In this document: positions 4,168 through 44,462 of the stretch, in pieces
How the letters are laid out: each line of letters opens with the position of its first letter
How positions within the stretch are numbered: position 1 is the stretch's first letter
Assembly (NCBI GenBank): GCA_039989855.1
Contig: JBDXGZ010000018.1
Location: 35,415 to 99,414 of the forward strand
Direction of reading: 5' to 3'
Origin: Maricaulaceae bacterium
GTDB lineage: Bacteria; Pseudomonadota; Alphaproteobacteria; Caulobacterales; Maricaulaceae
DNA: 64,000 bases
Program-made: the position numbers and the translations under genes
Notes under the pieces: generated by a model
The model's input: the letters and a program-made list of their open reading frames with translations, nothing else
What the model was told of the DNA's origin: nothing
Databases searched by the model: none

Positions 4168-5961
4168 TTGCTACGCCTATTGACATTAACGGGATTGATA
4201 ATGACAACGAACCCATGCCCCACAGCACGCGGTATCACACTACAACATAGTCCTTTTACTACCCTTACTGAGGGTCTTGACTATGCGGCCAAAGCAGACA
4301 CTGGTTTTAATTTCTTTGACGCGCGCGGGAATCTCAAAACAGTTCTCAGCTATAAAGAAATGCGTGAGCGAGCGATTGACGTCGCGAAAGGCCTTGTCGG
4401 CTTTGCTGACCTTAACGCACGCATTGGTATCGTCGCGACGACCTCGCCAGAATTCGTGATTTTATTTTTCGCCTGCCAATATGCAGGCCTTGTCCCCGCG
4501 CCCCTTCCATTACCTGTAACGCTTGGCGGCCGCAGCAGCTATGAGCGGCAATTACAACGTATGGCGGATACGGCTGATCTTCGTGCTTTATTCACACCGG
4601 CCTCTATGGAGCCGATAATGAGCGCGGCGTTAAATGATCATATCACGCCGATTTTGACTTTTGAAGATGCGTTTGAACTTCCAAAGTCTGGAGAGCTTCG
4701 TGCGCATGGACCAAACGATCTGTGCTACATTCAGTATTCTTCCGGCAGCTCAAGCTCGCCAAAAGGGATTATTGGCAGTCAAAAGAGTGTCACCTCTAAT
4801 TGTTTAGGGATCACCCGCGACGGCCTGCAAGTCAATGAAACCGACCGCGGCACAAGTTGGCTGCCAATGTATCATGATATGGGTTTAATTGGATTTATGG
4901 TTGCACCGATGATGTGTCAGCTCTCAGTTGATTATATGGACCCGCAAGATTTCACACGTCGTCCGATAACGTGGTTGCAACTTATTTCTGATCACAAAGG
5001 CACTTTGTCTTATAGCCCGACCTTTGGGTATGAGCTATGTGTCCGCCGTTGGCGCGAAGACCGTGAGCTTGATCTATCGTCTTGGCGAGCGGCGGGTATT
5101 GGCGGCGATATGGTTCGCCCAGAACCGCTCACAGAATTTTCTGATCTTTTTAGCCCTATGGGCTTTGATACGGGCTGTTTCACCCCAAGCTATGGTTTGG
5201 CTGAAACGACTTTGGCCGCGACCTTTACGCCACTTGGTCAAGGTCTCAAGCAACATACGATTGATATGAAAGTCGCCAATGCGGACAGCATTGCGCAAGC
5301 GGCGAATGATTTGACTCCGCTGGAAGACCAGCGAACCTTCGTGGCCTGCGGGACGGTTCTACCCGACCACACCATCGAAATTCGTGATTTTGGCAATAAT
5401 GTCCTTGAAGGCGAGGGTAAAATTGGCCGTATTTGTCTCCAAGGCCCGAGCGTATCTCCCGGCTATTTCCGCAATAAATCAGCGACTGAAGCCGCCTTTA
5501 GTGAAGCTGGGTGGCTTGATACAGGTGATCTAGGTTATTGGCTTGAGGGTCAGCTTGTCGTAACAGGCCGCTCTAAAGATCTTATTTTATGGCATGGTCG
5601 TAATATTTGGCCACAAGACCTTGAATGGGCCGCGCAAGCTGCAGCCCCCCATCGGTGTGGACGGGCCTGTGCCTTTTCCTCTGGCGGTGTGGGTGACCAA
5701 AAAGAAATTCGGTTGCTGCTCGAATGTAGAACACGCGACCCTAAATTGCTGGATGAAATTCATACCGCCGTATCAGCAGCGATACGCCTTGAAGTCGGGG
5801 TTCCTGTAAAACTTCAGCTTGTTCCGCGTAGCTCTATGATTATTACATCGTCTGGTAAGCTCGCGCGAGCGCGCGTTAAAGAGAAATTCTTAGGCGGTGG
5901 GATTATTGACCTTCAGAACGAAACGCCTCTGACTGTTGTTGAGACAGCTGCGAAGGGCTAA
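4168..5961 (+). CDS. Fatty acyl-AMP ligase / acyl-ACP synthetase (adenylate-forming enzyme)
   Basis: AMP-binding signature YIQYSSGSSSSPKG, later SYGLAETT and TGDLG. AAGGGAGGG Shine-Dalgarno just upstream of TTG 4168 (alternative ATG at 4201). First gene of a synthetase-reductase-ACP-Spt block. Confidence 0.8.
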   Translation: MLRLLTLTGLIMTTNPCPTARGITLQHSPFTTLTEGLDYAAKADTGFNFFDARGNLKTVLSYKEMRERAIDVAKGLVGFADLNARIGIVATTSPEFVILFFACQYAGLVPAPLPLPVTLGGRSSYERQLQRMADTADLRALFTPASMEPIMSAALNDHITPILTFEDAFELPKSGELRAHGPNDLCYIQYSSGSSSSPKGIIGSQKSVTSNCLGITRDGLQVNETDRGTSWLPMYHDMGLIGFMVAPMMCQLSVDYMDPQDFTRRPITWLQLISDHKGTLSYSPTFGYELCVRRWREDRELDLSSWRAAGIGGDMVRPEPLTEFSDLFSPMGFDTGCFTPSYGLAETTLAATFTPLGQGLKQHTIDMKVANADSIAQAANDLTPLEDQRTFVACGTVLPDHTIEIRDFGNNVLEGEGKIGRICLQGPSVSPGYFRNKSATEAAFSEAGWLDTGDLGYWLEGQLVVTGRSKDLILWHGRNIWPQDLEWAAQAAAPHRCGRACAFSSGGVGDQKEIRLLLECRTRDPKLLDEIHTAVSAAIRLEVGVPVKLQLVPRSSMIITSSGKLARARVKEKFLGGGIIDLQNETPLTVVETAAKG

Positions 5962-5979
5962 CGCCCTCGTCTCTGCTTT

Positions 5980-6879
5980 ATGATGCGCCCTTTAACGATT
6001 GCGATGACGGGCGGCACTGGATTTTTAGGCCCTTATCTTATTCAAGAAGCCGCCTCTCGCGGCCATAAGCTTCGCGTGCTTGCGCGCAATCCCGCTAAGC
6101 TATCACCTAATTTGGGTGAAAATATGACTATCCATCAGGGCAGCCTATCTGACATTCCTCCTGATTTCATTTCAGGCGCAGATGTCGTCTTACACATGGC
6201 AGGACTTATTAAAGCCCCGACACGTGAAGCCTTTTTTGAGGTTAACGGCACAGGAACAGGGCAAGTTGCGGCACTTACTCAGGCCCACGCTGTGCCGCGT
6301 TTTGTCTATCTTTCCTCTCAAGCTGCGACTCAACCGCAGCTTTCTGATTATTGCGCGTCCAAACGCGCAGGTGAGATAGAGCTTGCTGATAACTATACAG
6401 GCGAAGCGGTCATCATTCGAGCCCCTGCCGTCTTTGGCCCAGGGGATGAGGCGACGGCTCCCTTCTTTGCTTTTATGAAGCGTGGCCTCTTGCCTGTTCC
6501 AGGTGGGCGTGGGTGGCGCACACGGAAACTGTCTCTTGTTTATGCTCCTGATTTGGCACGGTTTATCATCGACCAAATTGAAAAGGGCTCCATAATCGAT
6601 CAGCCACTGATACCGGCATCCGTCCCAAGCCTTACATGGCAAGACTTTGCAGATACGGCAGGAGACATCATGGGCCGCACAATTAAGGTCGTGCCTTTAC
6701 CTATAACGATCTTAAAAGTGATTGCAGGGATAAATTCGGCCCTGTTACGCCGACTAATTAACCCGCACTTGACGCTAGGCAAACTTTCCGAGTTCCTATA
6801 TGACGACTGGAGTGTGGCTGAGGCGATTGAGTCTCCCACCGCATTAAAAACAGCTTTAAGAGAGACACTTGAAGCTTAA
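5980..6879 (+). CDS. cerR: NAD(P)-dependent epimerase/dehydratase-fold SDR, candidate ceramide reductase
   Basis: N-terminal Rossmann motif MTGGTGFLGPYL; 299 aa. Sits between the acyl-ACP synthetase and ACP/Spt genes, as the ceramide reductase gene does in Caulobacter (recalled synteny, not searched). Confidence 0.6.
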   Translation: MMRPLTIAMTGGTGFLGPYLIQEAASRGHKLRVLARNPAKLSPNLGENMTIHQGSLSDIPPDFISGADVVLHMAGLIKAPTREAFFEVNGTGTGQVAALTQAHAVPRFVYLSSQAATQPQLSDYCASKRAGEIELADNYTGEAVIIRAPAVFGPGDEATAPFFAFMKRGLLPVPGGRGWRTRKLSLVYAPDLARFIIDQIEKGSIIDQPLIPASVPSLTWQDFADTAGDIMGRTIKVVPLPITILKVIAGINSALLRRLINPHLTLGKLSEFLYDDWSVAEAIESPTALKTALRETLEA

Positions 6880-6925
6880 ACCACGAAACCGCCCTCACGC
6901 GGCAAGAATATGAGATATCGACCTT

Positions 6926-7171
6926 ATGGCGAGTAATGACGAAATTTACCAAAAAGTCTGCGAGCTTTTAAAGCCTTATAACCCCGAGAAACGTCCGATC
7001 TTAATGCAAAGCGGTATCGTCAGTGATCTTGAGGTGGACTCTGTAGCCGTATTTGATTTGGTGATGGGCCTCGAGGATCATTATGATATTTCAATCCCTA
7101 TGGAGATGGTCACAGATATCAAAACCGTCGGTGAGCTTGTGAATGCCATTCAGCAGCTCACGTCAAAATAA
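6926..7171 (+). CDS. Acyl carrier protein (dedicated, sphingolipid-type)
   Basis: 81 aa acidic four-helix-sized protein. Phosphopantetheine attachment context LEVDSVAVFDL. 14 nt upstream of the alpha-oxoamine synthase gene. Confidence 0.8.
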   Translation: MASNDEIYQKVCELLKPYNPEKRPILMQSGIVSDLEVDSVAVFDLVMGLEDHYDISIPMEMVTDIKTVGELVNAIQQLTSK

Positions 7172-7185
7172 CGGAAGCTATAATT

Positions 7186-8409
7186 ATGTCTTTGTTCGAT
7201 AAATATGCACCGCTGCAAAAGCGGATCGATGTAATGACGAAAATTGGCCGTGACGCGCTCGGAGTAAAATTTGATGATATCATCGACGCCACGCGTGGCC
7301 GTGTCGGGAACCGCGAAATTTTACTTGCAGGGACAAATAATTACCTTGGTCTGACCTTTGACGAAGATTGCGTTGCAGCCGCAAAAACCGCGATTGATAA
7401 ATACGGCACTGGAACCACGGGTTCACGTATTGCCAATGGAACTTATACTGATCATATTGCCTTAGAAGACGCCCTAGCCGCGCATTTAAACATGCCGAGC
7501 TGTATTGTTTTCTCCACGGGTTATCAGACTAACCTCGCCGCCATTTCGGGCTTGGCCGGGGATAAGGATGTCATCTTTATGGATGCTGATGCTCATGCTT
7601 GTATTATTGACGGCACACGCCTGACGGGGGCATCAACTATTCGCTTCCGCCATAATAATCCCGAAGACTTGGATAAGCGCTTGCGCCGCCAAGGAGAAAT
7701 TGAAGGCGGGAACGCGCTCGTGGTCATCGAAGGCATGTATTCCATGTTTGGTGACATTGCGCCGATTGATGAATTTCTTGATGTCACTCATAAGCACGGC
7801 GGCTATCTCTATATTGATGAAGCCCATAGTTACGGCGTGTTCGGCCCAACGGGTTGCGGTATTGCCGAGGAACAAGGTGTTCTTGACCGCGTTGATTTTA
7901 TCTCAAGCACATTTTCAAAATCTCTCGCATCGATTGGCGGCTTTTGCGCATCGAAACACCCTGAATTTGAAGTCACCCGCAAAGTCATGCGCCCCTATAT
8001 GTTCACCGCCTCACCGACTCCGTCGAATGTGGCTGCAGCGCTCGCAGCCGTGGATAAAATTAAAGCCGGCGGGCATTTGCGCGATAATCTAAAAGTGCGC
8101 GCGCAGCAGCTTCATAAAGGCCTCAGTGATTTGGGTTATGATCTTTGTGCAGACCCCAGCCCTGTGATTGCGGTGCGACGTCCAAATGAGGCGATTTGTG
8201 CGATGGAATGGAACTGGCTGCTTGATAATGGTATTTACGTCAATCTCGCTGTGCCGCCCGGAACACCCGAGAGCTCAAGCTTGCTCCGCATTAGTCTTTC
8301 TGCGGCCCATAGCGAAGCCGAGGTTAACGAAATCATCGCAAAATTCCGCGACCTCAAAGGCATGGAAGCCCAATTAATGAAAGAGCTGATGAGCAAGATT
8401 ACAGGGTAA
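7186..8409 (+). CDS. spt: Serine palmitoyltransferase-like PLP alpha-oxoamine synthase
   Basis: 407 aa AOS fold: GTGTTGSR, HAxIIDG, DEAHSxG, and the PLP-lysine context STFSKSLASIGG. Linked to its own ACP and acyl ligase rather than to bio genes. Confidence 0.7.
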   Translation: MSLFDKYAPLQKRIDVMTKIGRDALGVKFDDIIDATRGRVGNREILLAGTNNYLGLTFDEDCVAAAKTAIDKYGTGTTGSRIANGTYTDHIALEDALAAHLNMPSCIVFSTGYQTNLAAISGLAGDKDVIFMDADAHACIIDGTRLTGASTIRFRHNNPEDLDKRLRRQGEIEGGNALVVIEGMYSMFGDIAPIDEFLDVTHKHGGYLYIDEAHSYGVFGPTGCGIAEEQGVLDRVDFISSTFSKSLASIGGFCASKHPEFEVTRKVMRPYMFTASPTPSNVAAALAAVDKIKAGGHLRDNLKVRAQQLHKGLSDLGYDLCADPSPVIAVRRPNEAICAMEWNWLLDNGIYVNLAVPPGTPESSSLLRISLSAAHSEAEVNEIIAKFRDLKGMEAQLMKELMSKITG

Positions 8410-9929: not shown

Positions 9930-10766
9930 ATGCTCACGGATACTCTTAAGCCAAATATGCAAGTTTCTGGTGATGTTACAGCCAAACTTAATTACATCAA
10001 GCCAGACAGTACACTCACCCCCGAGGTTATCTATTCAGGCGGCGATGCCCCGCAAAGCTATAATGAAGCTTATGCTTTTATGGAGGCCCCGATTTATGAC
10101 GGCCGCGCCCATAGCGACACATTTGATATTCACAAACAAGGTTTCCAGTTGATCACCTCTCCGACACAGGTCCGCGACTTTTCAATCCAAGAAAATATCG
10201 AAGGCCCTTATTACGACGAAGTCAAAGCTATAGTTCGAAATGTAACGGGCGCAAAAGAGGTTTTTGTATTTGATCATATTGTCAGGCTTGGCGAGAATAA
10301 TAGCCGCCGTAAACCCGCCCATCATGTTCATAATGATTATTCGGAACGCACCGCCCATATCCGCGCCGAAGAACGCATTGGCGCCGCAAATTTCGCCGCG
10401 TTGAAACATCGCCGCATGATACAAATTAATGTCTGGCGACCATTGGTGGAGCGCGTTCAGCGCTCGCCCTTGGCCTTTTGTGATGCGGCGACAATTGAAG
10501 TGAAAGACCTCATTCCAACGAAAATACTTTTTCCAGATACAGGCCATGTCGGCGAAATTTATGCGCTGCGTAAAAACCCAAACCAGCGTTGGTCATATTT
10601 CTCTGAAATGACCCATGACGAAGTTGCACTAATAAAAGGCTATGATGACAGCCTCACGGAAGGTGTCGCTCGCTTTACCCCACATACAGCCTTTGAATAT
10701 TCCGACCAAGATCCGAGCGTTGGCCCACGTAAAAGTATAGAAACACGCACCTTTGCGTTTTACTAA
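9930..10766 (+). CDS. CmcJ/NvfI-family (AsaB-like) oxidoreductase/hydroxylase-like protein
   Basis: LNYIKP near the N-terminus, HVHNDYS, INVWRPL, FCDAATI, RFTPHTAFEY and C-terminal SIETRTFAFY fit my recollection of this family. The ORF opens at TTG 9921; the first ATG is at 9930. Confidence 0.55.
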   Translation: MLTDTLKPNMQVSGDVTAKLNYIKPDSTLTPEVIYSGGDAPQSYNEAYAFMEAPIYDGRAHSDTFDIHKQGFQLITSPTQVRDFSIQENIEGPYYDEVKAIVRNVTGAKEVFVFDHIVRLGENNSRRKPAHHVHNDYSERTAHIRAEERIGAANFAALKHRRMIQINVWRPLVERVQRSPLAFCDAATIEVKDLIPTKILFPDTGHVGEIYALRKNPNQRWSYFSEMTHDEVALIKGYDDSLTEGVARFTPHTAFEYSDQDPSVGPRKSIETRTFAFY

Positions 10767-11171
10767 ACATTAAACCAAGCCCACTGAAACCTATATTTTT
10801 AGAAACATTATTGGCCTTCTTCACGCCTCTTAGATGTCGCGGCTCTTTATCGTCTTAGTAACCAATGTATTGTCCAATGATATATGGATAAATGGGCATA
10901 TTATTGTGAACATACAGAATGTAACCTTTCAGCGTTACATTGGCACCAAAGCTTACAGAACGTGATGCCTACTGACTCTCTATGAGATGCAACATAAGCC
11001 AAAAGCCGCATTGATGCCCCGACCTAATTTTGGGACATAGGCGCTGGTGTCAGGCAATTTTCAGTAGATTACCGTTTAAGATAAAAGATTGATAACCCTA
11101 AAATAATTTAGAGCATCATCACAAACGTAAGCCTTGTAAATTCTGCAATTAAGTGTTTATGTCTTACGCTA

Positions 11172-11783
11172 ATGACCTCTAAAATACTAATTGTAGATGA
11201 CCACCCCCTAGCCCAGCAGGGAATAAAATCTGTTATCGAGTCTCTACCAGAATTCACGGTTTGTGGAATTCTTGATCGTGCTAGCGCGGTTTTACCATTT
11301 ATTAAAACTCAACTACCAGATATAATTCTCTTAGACTTAAATTTACCTGACCGTAACGGTCTAGATATTTTAGCCGAACTTGTTGGCGCCTTTGACTTAA
11401 CTATAATTATATTAACCGGGGAAGCGAACGCTAAAAAAATAAATAGATGCTTAAACCTTGGCGTGAGAGGAATCGTCAGCAAGGGAGACAAGAGCCAAAA
11501 CATTGTTGATGCAATGAGGCAAGCATTGGTCGGTGATATTTACCTATCCCCAGATATCATCAGTATCACAAGAGCAGCCAAACAATCAAAAATTGACTTA
11601 TCACCTCGTCAGATGGCTATCTTACATTTTCTATCAGATGACATAACAAACAAAGAAATAAGCTATAGATTAAAAATAGCCGCGCCTACAGTTTCATTTC
11701 ACATTGGTGAAATTAGAAAAAAACTAAACGTCTCTAATAATAAGAAAATTCTATCACGAGCTAAAGAGCTTGATTTGATTTAG
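11172..11783 (+). CDS. Response regulator, REC domain plus LuxR/FixJ-type HTH
   Basis: KILIVDDHPL, acceptor-Asp context IILLDLNLPD, C-terminal LSPRQMAILHFL...ISYRLKIAAPTVSFHIGEIRKKL. AT-rich codon usage. Confidence 0.85.
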   Translation: MTSKILIVDDHPLAQQGIKSVIESLPEFTVCGILDRASAVLPFIKTQLPDIILLDLNLPDRNGLDILAELVGAFDLTIIILTGEANAKKINRCLNLGVRGIVSKGDKSQNIVDAMRQALVGDIYLSPDIISITRAAKQSKIDLSPRQMAILHFLSDDITNKEISYRLKIAAPTVSFHIGEIRKKLNVSNNKKILSRAKELDLI

Positions 11784-34406: not shown

Positions 34407-34430
34407 TGTTTAACTCTCTTTTTTACAATA

Positions 34431-35129: not shown

Positions 35130-36235
35130 TTAGAGTCCATCCATGATTGGATTTTTCCACGTCTCAAGAATCCAACACAGACCACAGCAACATTAAAGGC
35201 GATACACACCCATGTCCAAATAGCGACCGTGTAAAAGCCCCAACGGCCTGCTTCGGGCCAGATGCCCATCAACATAATAGCGATCATGAAAATAAACGTA
35301 TTCGGGTTACGGCGCGCAATGATAAACCGCAAAGCCGAATTTATTGGTCGCCACACATGGATATGAAACCCGTGTTGAGCAATAAAGATACCTTCAACAA
35401 TACGGTCAACCACATAGCCGACTAAAATCGCCACAAGCGCAAATGCCATCAGATCCGTCGTGATATTCGGCCAGACAAATACTCCACCGAGCCCGACAAA
35501 CCAGGCCCAATACCAAAAGGGTGGGTGAATGAGATCAATGCCGTGGTCATAGACATTCCCCCATTTAGAGAAAGTCATGGTCGTGCGCGCAAGTTTCCCG
35601 TCCACAGTATCTAAAAAGGTCATGAACCAACCCGTAACAAAGCCTAACGCCCACTGTCCTTGCAAAAAGAAATAAAAGGCCGCCACCGTCATAACTAGGC
35701 TCAGCGTCGTGACCATATTGGGCGTAATGCGTAAATTGGCGCAAAAGCGCGTGGCGTAAAAGGCTGGAACGGGCCAAAAGAATTTAGTTACGAAATCAGT
35801 GATACCCTTATAGGAGCCTGCAAATTGCTGCTTCATAATCACGTCAGGCGACGTGGTACGAACATCAAGCGCATACGGCGCTTCTGTTTTACGCAAGGCT
35901 TTATCATAGGAAGACACTAATTGATCGGGTCGAGCCGTGCGTAAATCCTCAGCCGCAGACGCGGGCCGTCCCAACATGTCTTTATGCCCGCCCGAAACAC
36001 CGATAATGTGACCGTCAACGATCAGCGCAACATTATCACTTTGTGCAAAGGCTTTTAGGAGATTATTGGACAAGACGAAATGTGCATCTAGAAAATGAGA
36101 CACGTCTTGACCATTTTGAGACAACGACAGACCGAATTTTTTATAGGCTCGGGCTTGCCATTCTAGCACCTCAAGCCCCCAGAGCTTCGCCGTGGGCGTC
36201 CCAACAAGATGGATATGACGTACTATGTTTGACAC
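35126..36235 (-). CDS. CDP-alcohol phosphatidyltransferase-family enzyme with ~150-aa soluble N-terminal extension
   Basis: Complete signature DTVDGKLARTTMTFSKWGNVYDHGIDLIHP (D-x2-D-G-x2-A-R-x8-G-x3-D-x3-D) inside a multi-TM C-terminal half. 369 aa, far longer than a PgsA-type enzyme. Confidence 0.8.
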   Translation of the reverse strand: MSNIVRHIHLVGTPTAKLWGLEVLEWQARAYKKFGLSLSQNGQDVSHFLDAHFVLSNNLLKAFAQSDNVALIVDGHIIGVSGGHKDMLGRPASAAEDLRTARPDQLVSSYDKALRKTEAPYALDVRTTSPDVIMKQQFAGSYKGITDFVTKFFWPVPAFYATRFCANLRITPNMVTTLSLVMTVAAFYFFLQGQWALGFVTGWFMTFLDTVDGKLARTTMTFSKWGNVYDHGIDLIHPPFWYWAWFVGLGGVFVWPNITTDLMAFALVAILVGYVVDRIVEGIFIAQHGFHIHVWRPINSALRFIIARRNPNTFIFMIAIMLMGIWPEAGRWGFYTVAIWTWVCIAFNVAVVCVGFLRRGKIQSWMDSK

Positions 36236-36236
36236 T

Positions 36237-37607
36237 TTATTCCTTAAATTTCACACGTTGCTTTAAAGTATGCTTAGCCATAATCGTGACAATAATAACT
36301 GTAAAAAGATTTCCAACGAAAACCGCCCATGCCGCAGACATAGGGCCGACGGCCTTGGCCATTGCAAACAGTGCTACCAAATAGACAATCACTCCTGCGC
36401 CCCTCGCAATAATCGCTCGTTCTGGATGATCGGCTGCAAAAAATATAGGATATAGCGGGGCGGCAGCACCCATAAGCGCTGCGGCGGGAACTAAAATCAT
36501 GGCTATAGGCACAGCAGGTTCAAACCCTTCCCTAGCAATTAAGAGCAAGATATTTTCACCAAACACAAAAAACACGCCTGACATAAAGCAGCCAAACAAA
36601 AATAAGATAGCCGCCGCACGCGTCGTTAATTTCCAAATTTTTTCCACTTTTCCTTCGGTCACCATACGCGCTAATTCTGGATATATTACCTGATCGAGGA
36701 GTTTAAACCCTTCCGAGAGAAGCTTAGCAATTTCTTCAGCGATTTTGTAAATTCCGTTCCAAACAGGGCCAAAGATAGCAAATACAAGTAAATTAGGCAG
36801 ATGCACCGTCGCGGCGCCTAAGGTCGAATCAATGTTGGATTTAATAACAAAACTCCAAAGCCCTTTGCGCTTAGGTTTAAAAAAATTGATCTTGGCTTTA
36901 AAGACTGACTTTAATAAATGTCGCCGTTTTAATTCCCGTAAGGCCATAAATGGTAAGAATATATAGGCCGCTAGAGAGCCACAGAACCACGCGAGTAAAA
37001 AGCCCTCAAAGCCCGCATTTGTTACCACGGCTGTCACCGCCCCGATAAAGCGCACAACTGGCATGACGACCGCTTTAACGGCAAGAACATTAAATTGATC
37101 AAATAAACGGAAAACGCCAATAGACGCACCGCGTTGCCTCAGCAGCACCAATATACAATAAAGCGCCGCGTAATTTCGAACATCTTCTAAAGTAAACTTT
37201 TCACCTAAATTTATTCCATCGCCATAATTTTGCCCCATCCAGACTGAAAAGCTGAACAATGCGATCGCTAAAACATACGCAAAAACCGCAGAAATAGCAT
37301 CCAGCTTAATCCCAAAATTAATCAACTTACTCAGCTTAGAGCTATCTTTATTGTGCAGATCATCAGTTCCGTAACGAATAATCGCTTGCCAAGATTGAAA
37401 GGCCGTCACTTCTGAAAAAAATGACATATAACCATGAAGGAAAACCAGAACGCCAAACTCAGTTGGGGTCAGAAACTTTGTCCCCAAACTGAAGCTACCT
37501 AAGCCGACGATCACCCCTAAAAACTTCGACCCCACCATAAGGCCGCCGTTCTTTGCGATACGTTTTTGCCGAGAGTGTTTAGAATTCACCGATAGATCAG
37601 GGCTCAT
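36237..37607 (-). CDS. MOP/Wzx-type polytopic flippase-like membrane protein
   Basis: 456 aa with ~12-14 hydrophobic helices and the polysaccharide-biosynthesis (Polysacc_synt) type of layout. 1-nt gap and 4-nt overlap with its neighbours. Confidence 0.65.
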   Translation of the reverse strand: MSPDLSVNSKHSRQKRIAKNGGLMVGSKFLGVIVGLGSFSLGTKFLTPTEFGVLVFLHGYMSFFSEVTAFQSWQAIIRYGTDDLHNKDSSKLSKLINFGIKLDAISAVFAYVLAIALFSFSVWMGQNYGDGINLGEKFTLEDVRNYAALYCILVLLRQRGASIGVFRLFDQFNVLAVKAVVMPVVRFIGAVTAVVTNAGFEGFLLAWFCGSLAAYIFLPFMALRELKRRHLLKSVFKAKINFFKPKRKGLWSFVIKSNIDSTLGAATVHLPNLLVFAIFGPVWNGIYKIAEEIAKLLSEGFKLLDQVIYPELARMVTEGKVEKIWKLTTRAAAILFLFGCFMSGVFFVFGENILLLIAREGFEPAVPIAMILVPAAALMGAAAPLYPIFFAADHPERAIIARGAGVIVYLVALFAMAKAVGPMSAAWAVFVGNLFTVIIVTIMAKHTLKQRVKFKE

Positions 37608-38383
37608 GACGTCTCTCGCTTTATTGACCGCTCTGCCTCTTTGATCAGTATCTGCTCAACCAATATACGGTCCGAGGGCTTATCGACATCAATCGCGGCT
37701 TCAGGGACCGACATCAGTACAGGGGCCGCTGTAATGCCGAGAGTTTTGGACGCATAAGCCAAGGCTCCGTCCAAGGTTAACTTACCACGCCAATAGCGCC
37801 AAAATAGCGGCAAGCTAATTTTACGCGCTAATTTTAAAGGCTGCTTTCTAAAATGCTGTGCGTCTTTCCAAAATTCAATCGCGGCAAGGCCTCGCTCATT
37901 AGCAATGTAAAAAAGATTGCATCCCGAAACGGCATGGTCAGCAAAGCGTAAATAGGTCCGCTTTACATGCGGGTATGCCGGGTGGATAATCGTCTCTTCG
38001 GCCAGACCGAGACAAAAATCAGCATCCGTAGCTTGGGATTTTTCGATAAATTCTCTAATCATATCCGCCGTTAAAAGCGGATGGTCGGCGGTGGTCATTA
38101 GCACGGGAAATGACATGCCGTGGCTCAAGGCGGCGAGCGCACTACCAGCAGGGCCGGCCTCAGACGGAGCTTGCGTCAACCGCTTATCAACACTGGCGGG
38201 GCAACCGCTAATATGAAACGGCTCCTTTAGAGCCGCCGCATCCAACGCATCCACAACATAACTCAACATAGGACGCCCCAAAATTGGGACTAACGCTTTT
38301 CGCGGCTCACCTGTATCAGCGCAAAGCGGGTCGACAACACCCTCACGTTGTCCTGCCAATATAAGAACATTAACGGATGTCAC
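37604..38383 (-). CDS. MobA-like (NTP_transf_3) nucleotidyltransferase-family protein
   Basis: VLILAGQREG...ALVPILGRPML N-terminal nucleotide-binding loop and MTTADHPLL. 259 aa. Confidence 0.6.
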   Translation of the reverse strand: MTSVNVLILAGQREGVVDPLCADTGEPRKALVPILGRPMLSYVVDALDAAALKEPFHISGCPASVDKRLTQAPSEAGPAGSALAALSHGMSFPVLMTTADHPLLTADMIREFIEKSQATDADFCLGLAEETIIHPAYPHVKRTYLRFADHAVSGCNLFYIANERGLAAIEFWKDAQHFRKQPLKLARKISLPLFWRYWRGKLTLDGALAYASKTLGITAAPVLMSVPEAAIDVDKPSDRILVEQILIKEAERSIKRETS

Positions 38384-39531
38384 GCGCTCAACACCTTTTC
38401 ATACATGCGGTAGGTCTTATAAAGTTTTGCGTCCGCTTGCTCACATATGCCCCGCATGCCTTTATTATCTTCTAATATCCAAGACAGTTCGCACATATCG
38501 TAGCCTTGGGCCGCCCCCGCTTTGAACACATCTTCGCAAATACGGCACAGAGCGGCAAGACCGCGCTTTGTATTTTGATGCTCTTTCCTCAGCCCCATCA
38601 AAGGGATGCGGGCCGACTTGATTTTCTTACCCTTCAAGCGCGCGATGAGTTTCGCCCAACCAAAGGGCCATAATCGACCATCGAGGTCACGGGTCGCCTC
38701 ATTAATATTGGGGATCATCCAAATGAAGGCCGCTGGCTCCCCGTCAATCATGGCGAGGCGGTAACCTTCTTTAAAGATAATCGGCTTTAGCTCTTTGGCT
38801 GTATGGGCAATTTGTTCATCCGTTAGCGGCACAAAACCCCAATTATCAGACCACGCATCATTAAAAATCGACATCGCTAAATTAACTTCATCTATGAATT
38901 TTGTGGGATCCAACGTGCGAAAGCTAATCCCTGCATCACGCTCAACGATTTTGTTTAGGCGGCGCATAAACGGCCCCGGTGTAAAGCCTTCTGCTAAATC
39001 CGCACGGTAAGCCAAGAGGTCAATCGCTTTTTCAAGGCCTGCGCCTTCAATCATGTCTATATAGTCAGGACGACCGTAAGGCATCATCAACACATTGGGA
39101 TGCTCAAATCCGTCAATCAACAGACCACTTTCCTCATTCACGCTATGATTAGACGGGCCAATCATTTTACGTGCGCCCTTGGCCCGTAGCCAGTCCTCCG
39201 CTCGCTTTAATAAAGCCGCGCCCGTTTCCGCCTGCGCTTCGCAATCAAAATAGCCGAAATGCCCAGCTTCGTCATTATAGCGCTCGCGGTGATGAGGATT
39301 AAGGAAGGCCGCAATACGGCCCACAACCACATCGCCGCGTTTGGCAATAAACAACTGACGCTCAAGATGGGCCGCGTTCGGGTTTTTAATCTGAGAAATT
39401 TGATCAGCGCGCTCAAAGCGGAGCGGCGGATGCCACGTCGCCTGTCCACGGTATAGACCGTAAGGCACATCCAGAAAGGATTTAAGCTGCGCTTTATCCT
39501 GATCATTGATAGGTAAAATATTGACCGACAC
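38380..39531 (-). CDS. Two-lobed GNAT-like N-acyltransferase (candidate bacterial ceramide synthase-type enzyme)
   Basis: 383 aa. C-terminal lobe RIPLMGLRKEHQNTKRGLAALCRICEDV resembles the GNAT acyl-CoA binding segment. GTG start with an AGGAAAAGG RBS. First gene of the operon. Confidence 0.5.
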   Translation of the reverse strand: MSVNILPINDQDKAQLKSFLDVPYGLYRGQATWHPPLRFERADQISQIKNPNAAHLERQLFIAKRGDVVVGRIAAFLNPHHRERYNDEAGHFGYFDCEAQAETGAALLKRAEDWLRAKGARKMIGPSNHSVNEESGLLIDGFEHPNVLMMPYGRPDYIDMIEGAGLEKAIDLLAYRADLAEGFTPGPFMRRLNKIVERDAGISFRTLDPTKFIDEVNLAMSIFNDAWSDNWGFVPLTDEQIAHTAKELKPIIFKEGYRLAMIDGEPAAFIWMIPNINEATRDLDGRLWPFGWAKLIARLKGKKIKSARIPLMGLRKEHQNTKRGLAALCRICEDVFKAGAAQGYDMCELSWILEDNKGMRGICEQADAKLYKTYRMYEKVLSA

Positions 39532-39613
39532 GACCTTTTCCTAACCCTTTACAGGCGAATGAACCAATCGTGGCCTGACGTCAATTCGTTAAATGGCCGC
39601 TTACGGGAAAAGT

Positions 39614-40159
39614 TTAAGATTTCTTCTTTTTACTTTTGCCAACTTTTTGGAAGAAGATCTCAATATCCGTGCCCTTTTCTCCCACATTAAAAGCGGCGTC
39701 GTTAAATTTCGGCAACTTCTTCTTATATTCTGGGTTGTTTGACAGGCCGTACGGCTCTTTCGGGGTGAAGTCCCACTTTTGCTTCAACTTCCGGTTTCCG
39801 TCTAAATCGTGATAGCCTGCTACCGCATACATTCCCGCCTTCGGCACATTAATACAGACCACCATCGGGCTATCTTTGGCTTCAACGCGCACACGGTGCA
39901 ACCGGCCTTTTTTATATAAAAACCCATCTTTACTATTATAAAGCTCAAGCTTTAAAATACCTTCCGCGTGGATATTATGCGCTGTGACACGAATTTGAGT
40001 CGTATCCGCTACACATTCATCGGCCGCGTCACGTTCATAAAGCTCTAAAGTTGGATGCACCACAGGCCCATAATCTTCATCAGCTCCCGCTAGAACGGAA
40101 CCGTTCACATACAGTAGAAGTGCGACAAACATTAAGCCTTTGATAGATATGAACTTCAT
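39614..40159 (-). CDS. DUF2141-like secreted protein
   Basis: Signal peptide. GYHDLDGNRKL...PKEPYGLSNNP resembles the DUF2141 signature. Lys-rich tail GKSKKKKS. 82 nt upstream of the operon on the same strand. Confidence 0.6.
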   Translation of the reverse strand: MKFISIKGLMFVALLLYVNGSVLAGADEDYGPVVHPTLELYERDAADECVADTTQIRVTAHNIHAEGILKLELYNSKDGFLYKKGRLHRVRVEAKDSPMVVCINVPKAGMYAVAGYHDLDGNRKLKQKWDFTPKEPYGLSNNPEYKKKLPKFNDAAFNVGEKGTDIEIFFQKVGKSKKKKS

Positions 40160-40178
40160 AATTGCCTTTATGGTGTTA

Positions 40179-40192
40179 ATTCCCTAGGGAAT
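40179..40192. promoter_or_regulatory. Perfect 14-bp palindrome ATTCCCTAGGGAAT in the divergent DUF2141 / lptF intergenic region
   Basis: Read directly. It lies 20 nt from the DUF2141 start codon and 67 nt from the lptF start codon. Confidence 0.3.
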
Positions 40193-40258
40193 GCCTTAAA
40201 TTATTATACAATATGGTCATCGACCGCGAAAAGTAAACTTACGATTGTTACACTTACA

Positions 40259-41464
40259 ATGAACCGCCTGAACAGATACTTAATGAAAAACGCTTTAACC
40301 AGCATTGGTGGCCTCATTGTCTTCGCGATTGTGGTTCTTTTGCTTGAACGGCTATTACGAATTTTTCAAGTTATTACTAACTCGACTCAACCCGCATTAG
40401 ATGCTGGATCAATGATCGTCTTTCTCCTCCCGCACTATCTCGGCATTGCCGTTCCAATGGCTTTGCTTTTAGGGATCATCATTACAATTGACCGTTTTAG
40501 TCGATCCAGTGAGCTAACCGCCGCCTACGGCGCAGGCATATCACTGTTCCATATTACTAAACCCTTCATTTTAATTGCCGTAATATTAGCAAGCACCACG
40601 GTATTTATTGAAGGATATATGCAACCCATCGGGCGCTACAATTACCGACAGGTCGAACATAATGTGAAACAACAATCCTTTGCGGCGATTCTCCGTGAAG
40701 GGACATTTACCGAAGTCGGCAACCGCATGTTTTATGCAGGCACCGAAAAACCAGGCAAAGCCATTGGACCTATTTTTATCTATGAACAAGTAAAGGATAA
40801 AACAGACGCAATATCACTTCGCATCACAACCGCCGAAGAAGGTCAGCTCATCATCAGAGAGGAAACAGGGGAGCCCGTCCTACAATTGGCTGAAGGGCAA
40901 GGTTATCGTATTTTAGACAAAACCCGCTTAAGAGGCGACCTATCCTTTGAAAGCAGTTCTGTCGCAGGAACCGCAGAGGTAACACAATTTCGACCACGCG
41001 GTGACGATGAGCGTGAACTGACCTCTCTTGAACTTATAAAAAACCGTGATGGGAGCGTCTATACGACCGTCAGTCCTGATGTAAATAATGCGGCCCTCCA
41101 CCTACGAATTGCACGAGCGACTCTTTTATTAATCATACCCTTTATTGCGGTCCCTTTTGGATTGAACTATGGTCGCAACCCATCATCGACTGGGCTTTTT
41201 GTCGGTGTGGTTATGCTCGTGTCTTGCCAAAAGGCGTTAGAGTTTGGGCAAAGCCTTGGGGCAAAAAACATCTTACCCGCATGGGCCGGCGTTTGGTTTG
41301 TCATTTTAATTGTCGCCATTTTTGCCTTTTACATCTTCACCAAGAGTGCTTTCAAAATGGGGCAGCCTCCCTTGACGTCGATAAATATGGGCATCAAAAA
41401 TATGAAAATGGCAATGTCAGGTCGCATCAAACGACTTCGTCGCGCATGGGTAGAGTTGAAATAA
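40259..41464 (+). CDS. lptF: LPS export ABC transporter permease, YjgP/YjgQ family
   Basis: LNRYLMKNAL start, three plus three TM segments flanking a large periplasmic domain. TAATG junction with its paralogue. Confidence 0.75.
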   Translation: MNRLNRYLMKNALTSIGGLIVFAIVVLLLERLLRIFQVITNSTQPALDAGSMIVFLLPHYLGIAVPMALLLGIIITIDRFSRSSELTAAYGAGISLFHITKPFILIAVILASTTVFIEGYMQPIGRYNYRQVEHNVKQQSFAAILREGTFTEVGNRMFYAGTEKPGKAIGPIFIYEQVKDKTDAISLRITTAEEGQLIIREETGEPVLQLAEGQGYRILDKTRLRGDLSFESSSVAGTAEVTQFRPRGDDERELTSLELIKNRDGSVYTTVSPDVNNAALHLRIARATLLLIIPFIAVPFGLNYGRNPSSTGLFVGVVMLVSCQKALEFGQSLGAKNILPAWAGVWFVILIVAIFAFYIFTKSAFKMGQPPLTSINMGIKNMKMAMSGRIKRLRRAWVELK

Positions 41465-42549
41465 TGTATAAAATTTTCACCTATTTATCTGGAAGCTATA
41501 TCCGTATTTGGCTGACCACCGTTTTTGGTTTCCTTGTACTTATTGGGCTACTGGATTCACTCGCCAACGGCGGAGATATTATCGGCAATGGCGGCCAATT
41601 CACAGATACGTTTAAATATATGGCCTACCGTGCACCTGTCATTTTTGATAGAATTTTTGTCTTCACTCTCGTGGTCGCAATCTTGCTTTTATTTGTCAAA
41701 CTTATCAGGCAGCATGAATTAGTCGCGCTTTTAGGATTTGGCATATCCGCCCCCAAACAGCTTATGCTTCTCACACCTGTTGTTGTCGGCGCAGCACTTG
41801 TCTCTATTACAATCATCAATACAGCCATGCCGCAGTCAGTTCGGGCCCTACAAGCGTGGGGTATCGGCGAATATAAAATTAAAAACATCTCACCCGAAAA
41901 CCCTTTATGGTTCGAAGATAACCGCGAAATCGTCCGCGCCTCTTTACGTTTTGGAATGGATGATCTGGGAAATATCGAAATTTTTTCACGTGAAATTGAC
42001 GGCCGCATAAATAGCTACATAATTGCCAACCGTGCGACATATGATTTTGACGCCCAGCATTGGAAACTAACAGGTGTTAAGCAATTAGATATTGCCAGTG
42101 CCGACGGGCGACCTGTGAATGCCAAATCTGTGAATGAACCACTCGTTTGGAATTCTGCACAAAACCCTGAGTCCATTGCTCGACTTGCAGCCGAACCAAG
42201 AGACCTCGATTTAACGGACATGAAAACATTTAGCGAAAAAGGTAATTCGGGCAGTAAGCCACGCTTTGCTTATGAGTTTTGGTATCTACACCGTTTAACG
42301 CGTCCAATTGCGGCCTTTATACTGCTACTTTGTGCCGTGCCAATCATGCAACGCGTAAGACGACAGGATACGGGCGATAAGGCCCTCATTATCGGTATTA
42401 GTATGGGTTTTATCTTCCTCATTATTGACGGCGCATTAGCCACATTTGCGACAACTGGCGGCATGACCGTGTTGACAGCTATTATATCGCCTCTGATACT
42501 CTTTGGTTTGATAGGAACTTATCTCTGTCTTCAAACGGAAACTCTATAG
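41464..42549 (+). CDS. lptG: LPS export ABC transporter permease, YjgP/YjgQ family
   Basis: ATG 41464 (MYKIFTYLSGSYIRIWL) shares one nucleotide with the lptF stop codon. Same three-plus-three TM layout. The ORF extension back to 41224 was rejected. Confidence 0.75.
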   Translation: MYKIFTYLSGSYIRIWLTTVFGFLVLIGLLDSLANGGDIIGNGGQFTDTFKYMAYRAPVIFDRIFVFTLVVAILLLFVKLIRQHELVALLGFGISAPKQLMLLTPVVVGAALVSITIINTAMPQSVRALQAWGIGEYKIKNISPENPLWFEDNREIVRASLRFGMDDLGNIEIFSREIDGRINSYIIANRATYDFDAQHWKLTGVKQLDIASADGRPVNAKSVNEPLVWNSAQNPESIARLAAEPRDLDLTDMKTFSEKGNSGSKPRFAYEFWYLHRLTRPIAAFILLLCAVPIMQRVRRQDTGDKALIIGISMGFIFLIIDGALATFATTGGMTVLTAIISPLILFGLIGTYLCLQTETL

Positions 42550-42561
42550 CGAGCGGCCCTT

Positions 42562-43512
42562 ATGACCGATCGTATAATATTTTTCTCCAATTCAAAAAGC
42601 CAAGGCGTTCGCCGCAAAGGCAGTCGATTACTCGCCTTTTACACAGCCCATAAAACTAAAAAGTACATCTATACTGATGATCCAGCTGCACTGTTACAAA
42701 TCGAGTTTACGGCGCAAGACCATCTCTTTATCGAAGGTGGTGACGGGACCTTACAAAAGACTATCACAGGCTTGCTCAATTCGCTCACCGATATTGCTCA
42801 CTGTCCGAAACTCTCAATCGTAGCAGGCGGATTGACCAATCAAATCGCGGCCAATATTGGCCTTAAAGCGAAACAAGACGCAGACATAAATGACGCCATA
42901 ATCGCACCGCAAAGAGGGTTGCGCCCAACACCCATCCTCAAGCTCGACTATATGGGGACCCAATCCCAATATGGCTGCCTGTTTTCAACAGGGGCCTTGC
43001 CATTCGTTACAGATTATTATGAACAGAAAATCCGCGCCAACCCGACAGGCGGAACATCTGGAATCGTAACGACATTGATTAAGGCTGTGTCGGGCAACCA
43101 AGCGGCAAGGGATAAATTGATGCCGGCTACAGAACTTGAACTTGTCTTGAGAAACGGCAAGCAAGAGATATTGAAAACAGGGGCGCATCTCGGCACTATC
43201 GTAACAACCCTACCGTCACTTATGATGGGGCTTGATCCGTTTTGGGGTCAAGGCGAAGGAGATTTGCGCGTCCTTTATGCGGATGGGCGCGCACGGCGTT
43301 TAGTCCGTAATCTGACAGGGGTTTGGTTGGGGCGTAAGTCCATTGACCGCTCAGCCGACGGGCTTGAAAGCTTTCAAAGTGATAGGCTCACCTATCATTA
43401 TAACGGTCCCAAAATTCTCGACGGGGAGAAACTCGAGACGGGAGAAAATAATGGCCCTCTCACCATCAGCGCAACACCGCCCTTGCCCTTTGTTGCAACA
43501 CCCAAGTCATGA
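42562..43512 (+). CDS. DAGK-catalytic-fold lipid kinase (diacylglycerol/sphingosine/ceramide kinase superfamily)
   Basis: FIEGGDGTLQKTITGL (GGDGT signature) and IVAGGLTNQIAANIGL (the GT-x-N segment). 12 nt after lptG. Confidence 0.6.
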   Translation: MTDRIIFFSNSKSQGVRRKGSRLLAFYTAHKTKKYIYTDDPAALLQIEFTAQDHLFIEGGDGTLQKTITGLLNSLTDIAHCPKLSIVAGGLTNQIAANIGLKAKQDADINDAIIAPQRGLRPTPILKLDYMGTQSQYGCLFSTGALPFVTDYYEQKIRANPTGGTSGIVTTLIKAVSGNQAARDKLMPATELELVLRNGKQEILKTGAHLGTIVTTLPSLMMGLDPFWGQGEGDLRVLYADGRARRLVRNLTGVWLGRKSIDRSADGLESFQSDRLTYHYNGPKILDGEKLETGENNGPLTISATPPLPFVATPKS

Positions 43513-44462
43513 CGGACCCCTCTCAAGTTATCACTGACATTAAAACCGTGCTCTCTACGGAGACCGCTATTGCCAGTGCGCGGATTGAAAAAACCTGCAC
43601 CGATATTGCAGAGGCCCACGCGAGCTCCCAAGGTAGCCATGTGCTAGGGTTTCTATATTACGGCTCTTCTTTACGGGACGTCGATGACGCCTCAAAAATG
43701 CTAGATTTCTACGTCATCGTTGATAGCTATAAGACAGTTCACAAAGGTCGCCCTGTTCGGCAAATCATCAATCGTTACCTTCCGCCTGTGGTCTATTATT
43801 ATGAGCGCGAAGACGCGGACGGCACCCTGACGACCTGTAAATATTCACTGATTTCCCTACCTGAATTTGAGCGGCGCTGTGGAAGCTCAGCCTTCTTATC
43901 CATCATCTGGGGCCGCTTTTCTCAGCCGAGCTTATTATATTTTCCCAAAGATGAAACGATTGAAAATAAAATCCTCACCGCACGCGCTAACGCTGTCTTA
44001 CATGTCGCCCGTTGCACCGAAGGTTTATTTAACCACGCACCGACGTTTATAGAATTTTGGGCGCGCGGCTTTCGTGAAAGCTACCGCACAGAATTGCGCC
44101 CTGAAAGCTCCGAGGCACGGTCTCGGGAAATCGTCGCCAAATATTCCGATCGTTATGAAAAATTGATGCAGACCATTTACGGCGCGCCCAATGAAGAGGC
44201 GGCATATGCTCTTCCGACATCGTCAAGCCGATCAAAAGCGGCGCGGCAATGGTTCCTTCGCCGCCTCATGGGGCGACCGATAACGGCCATACGCGTGCTG
44301 TGTAGTGCGGCCACTTTTGACGGCGGCCTTGACTATGTCTTGCGCAAAATCGAGCGGCACTCGGGCGTGACCCTTGAGCCGAGCCCGTTTCAACGCAAGC
44401 ACCCCGTTCTTTGCGCTCCCGTACTTGGGTGGAAGCTTTGGCGCAAAGGCGCGTTCGGCTAG
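43509..44462 (+). CDS. Tam41/Mmp37-like nucleotidyltransferase (candidate CDP-lipid synthase)
   Basis: FLYYGSSL...MLDFYVIVD...VVYYYE...TCKYSLISL...IWGRFSQPSLL follows the pattern I recall for the Mmp37/Tam41 phosphatidate cytidylyltransferase family. ATGA overlap with the kinase gene. Confidence 0.5.
   Translation: MTDPSQVITDIKTVLSTETAIASARIEKTCTDIAEAHASSQGSHVLGFLYYGSSLRDVDDASKMLDFYVIVDSYKTVHKGRPVRQIINRYLPPVVYYYEREDADGTLTTCKYSLISLPEFERRCGSSAFLSIIWGRFSQPSLLYFPKDETIENKILTARANAVLHVARCTEGLFNHAPTFIEFWARGFRESYRTELRPESSEARSREIVAKYSDRYEKLMQTIYGAPNEEAAYALPTSSSRSKAARQWFLRRLMGRPITAIRVLCSAATFDGGLDYVLRKIERHSGVTLEPSPFQRKHPVLCAPVLGWKLWRKGAFG

Follow-up and report, generated by a model that had tools for sequence, protein, structure and literature searches.

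A probable gene set for making and exporting a ceramide phosphoglycerate-type sphingolipid in an uncultured Maricaulaceae bacterium

Results

Thirteen orthologues of the Caulobacter sphingolipid genes lie in two loci

The DNA analysed here is a 64-kb stretch of a metagenome-assembled genome (MAG) labelled Maricaulaceae bacterium (the window). Its CDP-alcohol phosphotransferase has a 100% identical counterpart among database proteins from that source. Genes were called from a listing of open reading frames (ORFs) together with Pfam and NCBIfam profile searches of the window. A reader of the sequence alone had proposed that it holds a complex-sphingolipid pathway dependent on cytidine diphosphate (CDP) and spread over three loci (the original prediction). 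Every gene named there is real and lies where it had been placed. The number of loci is two, as the second and third of the proposed loci are contiguous: an spt operon at 4168-8409 and a 14.6-kb cluster at 29892-44462. The cluster consists of two divergent operons about 100 bp apart (40159/40259). The minus-strand operon, read from 40159 to 29892, contains ten genes with gaps of at most 83 bp. DUF2141 comes first, followed by a 383-aa protein, NTP_transf_3, a 456-aa membrane protein and a CDP-alcohol phosphotransferase; the second half holds, in order, a HAD-IB phosphatase, NTP_transferase, a GMC oxidoreductase, a cyclopropane fatty acid synthase and a member of the Asp/Arg-hydroxylase family. 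The plus-strand operon (40259-44462) encodes LptF-like and LptG-like proteins, a DAGK_cat kinase and a 317-aa protein. Scans of 29-45 kb found 23 promoters against 22 expected from shuffles and 26 terminators against 20 expected; since these results were no better than shuffles, the operons were defined without them.

In Caulobacter crescentus, a 17-gene locus, CC_1152-CC_1168, includes five genes that make ceramide (Zik 2022, PMC9393093; Olea-Ozuna 2024, PMC11324152). For comparison with this system we used 80 genomic loci around homologues of the window transferase, including that of C. vibrioides DSM 9893 (L076), and added the Hyphomonas neptunium cluster (L001) separately. Orthologues were sought by tblastn of the window proteins against these two loci. 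Thirteen of the 17 Caulobacter genes have orthologues in the window, namely AasR, CerR, AcpR, Spt, bCerS, CC_1153, CpgA, CpgB, CpgC, CpgD, LptF2, LptG2 and the CC_1166 flippase. The 13 proteins match C. vibrioides at the expected gene positions with E values from 1e-8 to 1e-143, a grouping far beyond chance, and all of them match H. neptunium more strongly still. We consider it very probable that the window carries the alphaproteobacterial genes by which an anionic phosphosphingolipid of the ceramide phosphoglycerate (CPG) or CPG2 type is made and exported, a set orthologous to CC_1152-CC_1168. The functions ascribed to orthologues below are drawn from PMC9393093, PMC11324152, PMC12275187, PMC13228409, 10.1101/2023.05.01.538943 and 10.64898/2026.04.12.717747.

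The ceramide synthesis module

The spt operon lies on the plus strand in the order AasR-CerR-AcpR-Spt, as in C. vibrioides and H. neptunium. Its first gene (4168-5961; PF00501, NF006624 at 654 bits) encodes an AasR-type fatty acyl-AMP ligase/acyl-ACP synthetase (CC_1165), 42% identical over 586 aa to the protein at the CC_1165 position of C. vibrioides (E 1e-143). The CerR-type NAD(P)-dependent ceramide reductase (CC_1164; 5980-6879) is of the short-chain dehydrogenase/reductase type with Epimerase/3Beta_HSD Pfam matches and, at the syntenic position, is 30% identical to C. vibrioides (E 1e-24) and 35% to H. neptunium (E 2e-40). The dedicated AcpR-type acyl carrier protein (CC_1163; 6926-7171) has a PP-binding domain and 41-45% identity to its syntenic counterparts (41%, E 1e-8, in C. 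vibrioides). Spt, the serine palmitoyltransferase (CC_1162; 7186-8409), scores as the Spt of the alpha-oxoamine synthase family (NF047599, 540 bits with a cutoff of 500) and shares 47% identity with C. vibrioides (E 5e-117) and 57% with H. neptunium. The ceramide backbone genes of the original prediction at 4168-8409 are therefore borne out by ORFs, Pfam and NCBIfam. The bacterial ceramide synthase bCerS (CC_1154) is encoded in the main cluster, on the minus strand at 38380-39531. It is the 383-aa protein, for which Pfam and NCBIfam gave nothing usable up to E 10 save a weak GNAT match; its identity is 42% over 381 aa to C. vibrioides (E 2e-81) and 44% to H. neptunium.

The head-group genes

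CpgA, CpgB, CpgC, CpgD and the CC_1153 orthologue were all found at their expected positions, in an order common to more than 40 loci. CpgD, the CTP:phosphoglycerate cytidylyltransferase (CC_1152; NTP_transferase, 33651-34406, minus strand), was assigned by orthology: it is 50% identical to C. vibrioides (E 4e-65) and 60% to H. neptunium, and LicC is its best solved-structure match in a PDB sequence search. A crystal-structure preprint on the C. crescentus enzyme names eight residues that bind the CTP or glycerate moiety (PMC13228409). In an alignment with the C. vibrioides ORF all eight are kept (G12, R16, N90, N110, M147, K161, S170 and W201), which favours phosphoglycerate over inositol phosphate or another head group.

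The CDP-alcohol phosphotransferase CpgA (CC_1159; 35126-36235, minus strand; PF01066, 1.6e-10) has an N-terminal cytosolic domain and is 40% identical over its full length to C. vibrioides (E 4e-77). The CDP-alcohol phosphotransferase (CAPT) motif DxxDGxxAR...GxxxDxxxD is intact as D209-T-V-D-G-K-L-A-R...G226...D230...D234 and invariant in 57 homologues. Structures of CpgA and CpgC were AlphaFold 2 (AF2) models, compared with the PDB by Foldseek. The CpgA model, with a predicted local distance difference test (pLDDT) score of 89.7, superposes full-length on AF2299 (template modelling (TM) score 0.66/0.72) and on IPCT-DIPPS, and phosphatidylinositol phosphate (PIP) synthases were matched as well. 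This fold points to a cytosolic N-terminal domain joined to a six-helix transferase domain, the architecture of enzymes with soluble CDP-alcohol donors. One locus of the comparison set (L072, Variovorax sp. ZT4R33) has two CpgA homologues in a single sphingolipid cluster.

The CC_1153 orthologue (37604-38383, minus strand) is a MobA/CofC-like nucleotidyltransferase (PF12804, NTP_transf_3), 37% identical to C. vibrioides (E 2e-38) and 40% to H. neptunium; it directly adjoins bCerS, as in nearly all related loci. On the plus strand, the ceramide kinase CpgB (CC_1160; 42562-43512; DAGK_cat) carries GGDG at residues 59-62. Syntenic upstream of cpgC, it is 28% identical to C. vibrioides (E 7e-11) and 32% to H. 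neptunium (E 6e-29).

CpgC (CC_1161; 43509-44462, plus strand) is a 317-aa nucleotidyltransferase-like protein of the Tam41 fold, assigned by orthology (31% to C. vibrioides, E 4e-37; 41% to H. neptunium, E 2e-62) and by its AF2 model. The model has a pLDDT of 87.1 and shows the nucleotidyltransferase plus helical domain of Tam41. Its top four PDB matches are all Tam41 (E 1e-7 to 2e-5, TM 0.43-0.58), 7ecd being the best (E 1e-7, TM 0.51/0.58), then 6ig2 and 6ig4. By sequence, no Pfam family, the Tam41 family PF09139 included, matched the window CpgC or 13 diverse orthologues at E up to 10, NCBIfam yielded nothing usable for the window protein, and PDB sequence searches with the CpgC protein and two family profiles returned no Tam41. 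When diverse CpgC orthologues are combined in a profile, the YGS...D motif aligns with a minimal nucleotidyltransferase. For CC_1161 itself, a match to InterPro IPR015222 has been reported (Olea-Ozuna 2024, PMC11324152). The name "Tam41-like" given in the original prediction is thus right at the level of fold, though it has no sequence-level match.

A 13-bp-stem hairpin with A and T runs on either side (44496-44524), likely a bidirectional terminator, lies between the convergent cpgC and aconitase genes.

One of two unrelated phosphatases accompanies cpgA

The HAD-IB phosphatase gene (34431-35129, minus strand; PF12710, TIGR01490) sits between cpgA and cpgD and overlaps the cpgA stop codon. 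Its DxDxT motif reads D18-L-D-Y-T. The phosphatase call of the original prediction is confirmed by family and motif, not by orthology: the enzyme is an analogue and not a homologue of the CC_1158 phosphoesterase, and a search for a CC_1158-type metallophosphoesterase gave no match in the window at E <0.01. Across 65 loci, the region near cpgA has a HAD-IB gene in 25, a CC_1158-type gene in 38, both in none and neither in two, so that some phosphatase, of two unrelated kinds, accompanies cpgA in 63/65. The HAD-IB gene is directly downstream of cpgA in 25 loci, among them the window and Hyphomonas, and of the 40 loci in which cpgA and a CC_1158-type gene are both present, 24 have them about 100-200 bp apart. 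That the two phosphatases exclude each other points to non-orthologous displacement at a phosphatase step which is itself conserved. In the published comparison Hyphomonas, Sphingomonas and others count simply as lacking CC_1158, and the HAD gene goes unmentioned.

Linkage with spt and the split of its operon

Linkage was counted in the 52 loci (20-kb loci) whose CpgA homologue is flanked by a complete 10 kb on either side. In 43 of them Spt is found no farther than this from the CpgA gene; the corresponding counts are 50 each for CpgD, CC_1153, LptF2 and CpgC, 49 for bCerS, 44 for CpgB and 43 for LptG2. The original prediction had proposed co-occurrence with spt as a check, and the counts bear it out as linkage; they come from phylogenetically non-independent loci and are not a formal co-evolution statistic.

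The nearest relatives are Hellea, Litorimonas, Algimonas and uncultured Caulobacterales. Among the cultured ones, Hellea balneolensis DSM 19091 and Litorimonas sp. WD9-15 have the operon of the window. Their order is Acp-Spt, then CpgC-CpgB-LptG2-LptF2 on the opposite strand, then DUF2141-bCerS-CC_1153-flippase-CpgA-HAD-CpgD-(GMC)-cyclopropane synthase-hydroxylase. This Hellea-group order is that of the window but for one difference: in the relatives Acp-Spt directly adjoins cpgC. Synteny continues past the hydroxylase (HTH, HAD2, GlmU, the ORF at 23977-24681, a pyridine-nucleotide oxidoreductase and DAHP synthase). The window is collinear with Hellea-group relatives from 20.5 to 44.5 kb, which indicates that the order is ancestral and that only the spt/cpgC junction is broken. 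The split of the spt operon from the rest would most simply be a local rearrangement by one inversion with a breakpoint at that junction; the separation reflects no separate function.

The CC_1157-type HIT gene, which the literature regards as "probably unrelated", occurs in 56/82 loci, usually beside cpgA (L001 and the L023-L082 range). The window and L003-L022 are without it; its place is taken there by the gene for the CC_1166-type flippase.

Export genes and DUF2141

A diverged LptF/LptG-family pair lies within the cluster, syntenic with CC_1156/CC_1155. LptF2, the sphingolipid exporter permease (CC_1156; 40259-41464, plus strand; PF03739), is 29% identical to C. vibrioides (E 6e-33) and 36% to H. 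neptunium in syntenic position, and scores 208.5 bits with TIGR04407, whose LptF cutoff is 230. LptG2 (CC_1155; 41464-42549, plus strand; PF03739) is 21% identical to C. vibrioides (E 1e-14) and reaches 166.9 bits with TIGR04408 (LptG cutoff 240). Scores below the NCBIfam equivalog cutoffs are as expected for diverged paralogues. The mechanical ORF call (TTG start at 41224) makes LptG2 80 codons too long; we reassigned its start to the ATG at 41464, which gives a TAATG overlap with the LptF2 stop (41462-41466). The original prediction had treated lptFG as genes to which the kinase and the Tam41-like gene were merely attached, but the orthologues are the sphingolipid exporter LptF2/LptG2 (10.64898/2026.04.12.717747).

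The 456-aa protein (36237-37607, minus strand) is a CC_1166-type polytopic membrane protein with about 9-10 hydrophobic segments, a putative sphingolipid flippase. It had no usable Pfam or NCBIfam match at E up to 10 and is 29% identical over 459 aa to the C. vibrioides ORF at the CC_1166 position (E 2e-49). The first gene of the minus-strand operon (39614-40159) encodes an exported DUF2141 protein (PF09912) with an N-terminal signal-like hydrophobic segment, which could be a periplasmic component. A DUF2141 gene occurs in 31 of the 52 related loci, mostly just upstream of bCerS, including Hyphomonas and several Caulobacter species, and goes undiscussed in the Caulobacter sphingolipid papers examined.

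Other transporter genes were seen in some distant clusters. In two Hyphomicrobiales MAGs (L066 1639-3357 and L077 1625-3343) an MsbA-like ABC half-transporter gene lies between hydroxylase and bCerS, and in a Roseovarius-labelled MAG (L029 12647-14025) ORFs within the cluster were read by eye, from sequence only, as LptA-like and LptB-like.

Candidate tailoring genes at the operon 3' end

The last three genes of the minus-strand operon are packed 15-23 bp apart (29892-33627). The gene for the GMC-family FAD oxidoreductase (32026-33627; GMC_oxred_C and DAO Pfam matches) directly follows cpgD in the window, in L003 and in L023 and L026, both from Henriciella, and a homologue occurs in L004. The cyclopropane fatty acid synthase family methyltransferase (30723-32006; PF02353 2e-92; NF053839 at 536 bits, cutoff 600) is encoded 15-19 bp from its neighbours and is kept downstream of cpgD in eight Hellea-group loci. 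The last gene (29892-30707) encodes an OlsC/LpxO-like acyl hydroxylase of the Fe/2-oxoglutarate type (PF05118, 1e-53), which stays below the cutoffs for both OlsC (223 bits, cutoff 450) and LpxO (143 bits, cutoff 500). Of the 52 full loci, 15 encode a homologue of it no more than 10 kb from cpgA, in three cluster layouts. Hydroxylase genes are also found near the sphingolipid clusters of L029, L066, L075 and L077. A literature search returned nothing relevant tying LpxO/OlsC-type hydroxylases to sphingolipids. The hydroxylase and the cyclopropane synthase are candidates, judged from gene context and family, for enzymes acting on sphingolipid chains; all three genes serve as leads for lipid tailoring and not as demonstrations of it.

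Neighbouring genes outside the set

A lysophospholipase/SCP2 pair and yciB had been counted in the lipid theme of the window. We rejected all three as cluster members, because no counterpart exists in 82 related loci; they lie among housekeeping genes such as aconitase and trpA/trpB-type genes, with an AIPR gene in a low-GC patch. Two patches, at 10000-14000 and 48000-50000, have a GC content of 0.36-0.41 compared with about 0.48 elsewhere and are possibly acquired islands. A LuxR-type response regulator and a 7TMR-DISM histidine kinase are encoded in the first, the AIPR (abortive-infection-type) protein in the second.

Discussion

A pathway proposed from the Caulobacter orthologues

Taken over from Caulobacter by orthology, the pathway would begin with AasR loading a fatty acid onto AcpR and Spt joining the acyl chain to serine; bCerS would N-acylate the Spt product and CerR would reduce it to dihydroceramide. 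CpgB would phosphorylate ceramide, and CpgC would be required to convert ceramide-1-phosphate to CPG. CpgD would supply CDP-glycerate, and CpgA would be needed, together with the CC_1153-type nucleotidyltransferase, for the second phosphoglycerate that yields CPG2. LptF2/LptG2, with the lipopolysaccharide (LPS) ATPase LptB, would carry the lipid out of the inner membrane. In Caulobacter itself, CpgB is a characterised ceramide kinase (10.1101/2023.05.01.538943), and CpgD was shown biochemically to make CDP-glycerate from CTP and phosphoglycerate (PMC12275187; structures in PMC13228409). The requirements for CpgA, CpgC and CC_1153 were established genetically, and LptF2/LptG2 are sphingolipid-specific paralogues of the LPS exporter (bioRxiv 10.64898/2026.04.12.717747).

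Further steps may be sketched from fold, family and gene position. CpgC, with its Tam41 fold, may activate ceramide-1-phosphate with a nucleotide, and CpgA, given an architecture like that of AF2299/DIPPS, may transfer phosphoglycerate from CDP-glycerate. The HAD-IB phosphatase may fill the role of CC_1158, the CC_1166-type protein may flip the lipid across the inner membrane, and the cyclopropane synthase, the OlsC/LpxO-like hydroxylase and the GMC oxidoreductase may tailor the same lipid.

Several points weigh against assigning the window to the CPG/CPG2 system. There is no homologue of the CC_1157 HIT protein, the CC_1158 metallophosphoesterase, CC_1167 or LptC2 within the 64 kb, which also contain no further LptF/LptG ORF. 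The identities of CpgB (28%) and LptG2 (21%) to Caulobacter are low, and these two assignments are partly based on synteny. In NCBIfam, CpgA scores highest with synthases of the inositol-phosphate type, though it reaches the cutoff of none. The comparison covers the top 80 of at least 597 matches, and its loci are phylogenetically non-independent. A ceramide phosphoglycerate-type head group is predicted here by analogy with Caulobacter, where the mechanisms of CpgC, CpgA, CC_1153 and the phosphatase are themselves unsolved.

Alternative explanations

If the transferase module, which comprises NTP_transferase, the HAD phosphatase and the CDP-alcohol transferase, made another head group, for instance inositol phosphate in the manner of DIPPS and PIP synthases and of the inositol sphingolipids of Bacteroidetes, the product would be ceramide-phospho-inositol or similar. 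The transferase does score best with archaetidylinositol-phosphate synthase, PIP synthase and IPCT-DIPPS in NCBIfam, and NTP_transferase matches IPCT weakly; the Foldseek matches include IPCT-DIPPS and PIP synthases, and a neighbouring phosphatase is typical of systems with phosphorylated acceptors. However, the NCBIfam scores are far below cutoffs (45 bits vs 180; 50 vs 580), no myo-inositol-phosphate synthase domain turned up among the window ORFs scanned, and the transferase is CpgA-like along its whole length. The NTP_transferase, half identical to the characterised CpgD, keeps the glycerate contacts N90, N110, M147, K161 and S170. We therefore rejected the inositol-phosphate head group, on its sub-cutoff scores and the conserved CpgD residues, as very improbable. 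The proximity of the two loci might, on the other hand, be coincidental, the cluster at 29892-44462 serving LPS export and glycerophospholipid or ornithine-lipid remodelling (canonical lptFG, a PgsA-like enzyme, diacylglycerol kinase, OlsC, cyclopropane synthase) unrelated to the spt operon 21 kb away. Pfam names alone fit such ordinary envelope lipid metabolism, and housekeeping genes (NadE, DAHP synthase, GlmU, a two-component system) fill the 21 kb in between. Against this stand the linkage of spt to the CpgA gene in most loci and its contact with cpgC in the Hellea group, the ceramide-specific bCerS within the cluster, the sub-equivalog scores of the LptF- and LptG-like proteins and the genetic ties of the Caulobacter orthologues to spt (PMC11324152; 10.64898/2026.04.12.717747), which together leave coincidence scarcely credible.

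A closer alternative keeps the same cluster and changes its chemistry to PgsA/Pgp logic throughout. CpgC would make CDP-ceramide, and a CDP-alcohol transferase would join this to the free hydroxyl of a phosphoglycerate. The terminal phosphate of the phosphorylated intermediate would then be removed by the HAD enzyme (CC_1158 in Caulobacter), and CDP-glycerate would not be the sole activated donor. The Tam41 fold of CpgC and the phosphatase found with cpgA in nearly all loci count in its favour. HAD-IB proteins include phosphoserine phosphatases, whose substrate resembles 3-phosphoglycerate, and this counts for it as well. A similar scheme was sketched by Olea-Ozuna 2024 (PMC11324152), and the Caulobacter cpgC deletion accumulates ceramide-1-phosphate (PMC9393093). 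The Caulobacter cpgA deletion, in contrast, still makes CPG (PMC9393093), so CpgA is dispensable for adding the first head group. CpgD has been shown to make CDP-glycerate, and when it is lost only CPG2 is blocked (PMC12275187); deletion of CC_1158 has only a mild phenotype, with a partial CPG2 defect, and CDP-ceramide has never been observed, the exact term not being found in the literature searched. We regard this scheme as a possibility, on balance a doubtful one. The assignment to the CPG/CPG2 system, with CDP-glycerate as the presumed donor supplied by CpgD, is the one we retain. A more daring extension of it, by which the operon of this marine Caulobacterales clade would do more than that of Caulobacter, holds jointly that a phosphatase, HAD-IB or CC_1158, is obligatory, that the operon's tailoring enzymes act on the sphingolipid and that CpgC makes nucleotide-activated ceramide; we offer this combination tentatively and think it rather unlikely as a whole. 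If a phosphatase step were obligatory and filled by one or the other of two unrelated enzymes, the head group would have to pass through a phosphorylated intermediate, as in the synthesis of phosphatidylglycerol phosphate (PGP) or PIP. If the tailoring enzymes did act on the sphingolipid, bacterial phosphosphingolipids with cyclopropane or 2-hydroxyl groups would for the first time have genes of these enzyme families assigned to them.

Significance and comparison with known systems

The earlier account of the pathway is partly supported. One CDP-dependent complex-sphingolipid pathway is upheld, since in most relatives the genes form a single cluster with spt, and orthology to the Caulobacter locus confirms the kinase, Tam41-like protein, transferase, nucleotidyltransferases, flippase and ceramide synthase. 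Two routes, ceramide activated through ceramide-1-phosphate to CDP-ceramide or a soluble CDP-activated head group transferred onto ceramide, had both been thought new for bacteria. That claim fails, as the Caulobacter CPG/CPG2 system has been in print since 2022. For the second route, the CpgD-CpgA proposal is published and CDP-glycerate demonstrated (PMC12275187); for the first, a nucleoside-diphosphate-activated ceramide made by the Tam41-type CC_1161 was proposed in Olea-Ozuna 2024 (PMC11324152). The main finding is therefore already known, and the phosphatase swap, the HIT conservation and the tailoring-gene linkage are mildly new.

In Caulobacter, CPG2 is the target of polymyxin and permits survival in the absence of lipid A. 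With the window, the range of this system grows to include the Hellea group and uncultured marine Maricaulaceae. Mainly, though, the window shows that a sequence-only reader was able to rebuild a real, recently discovered pathway. Leads for the unsolved chemistry of CpgA and CpgC are the phosphatase in its two forms, the conserved HIT gene, the frequent DUF2141 and the tailoring genes of this clade.

The system resembles the CDP-diacylglycerol pathway (Tam41 or CdsA, then PgsA, then PGP phosphatase) in the fold of CpgC and in the phosphatase next to the transferase. It differs in that the lipid is a ceramide and not diacylglycerol, that the only demonstrated CDP-alcohol is the soluble CDP-glycerate, that no cluster protein matches Pfam Mmp37/Tam41 by sequence and that nucleotide-activated ceramide is unobserved. 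CpgA, for its part, is like the DIPPS/AF2299 CDP-alcohol phosphotransferases in its CAPT motif and its AF2299/IPCT-DIPPS architecture.

Compared with Caulobacter CC_1152-CC_1168 (CCNA_01210-01226), 13/17 genes are common and the domain content is alike. The local pairs and strings bCerS/CC_1153, LptF2/LptG2, CpgB/CpgC and AasR-CerR-AcpR-Spt recur, and the window has 10 of the 11 genes experimentally required for CPG2 in Caulobacter. Unlike Caulobacter, it is without HIT (CC_1157), CC_1158, CC_1167 and LptC2, places HAD-IB between cpgA and cpgD and the flippase gene inside the cluster, and has its spt operon about 21 kb away on one side, or 36 kb when measured from cpgC. Its operon adds DUF2141, the GMC oxidoreductase, the cyclopropane synthase and the OlsC/LpxO-like hydroxylase to the Caulobacter set.

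A close published arrangement is that of H. neptunium, HNE_1578-HNE_1594 (Olea-Ozuna 2024, Fig 7, Table S2A). In Hyphomonas, unlike the window, the HIT gene and a CC_1167 homologue are kept, spt abuts cpgC, the flippase gene is beside aasR, and the operon is without cyclopropane synthase, hydroxylase and GMC genes. Both have the same two divergent operons and share DUF2141-bCerS-CC_1153-...-CpgA-HAD-CpgD on one strand and LptF2-LptG2-CpgB-CpgC on the other. As the 2024 paper already lists this Hyphomonas cluster, from a relative that also belongs to the Caulobacterales, the window is a further case of a known system.

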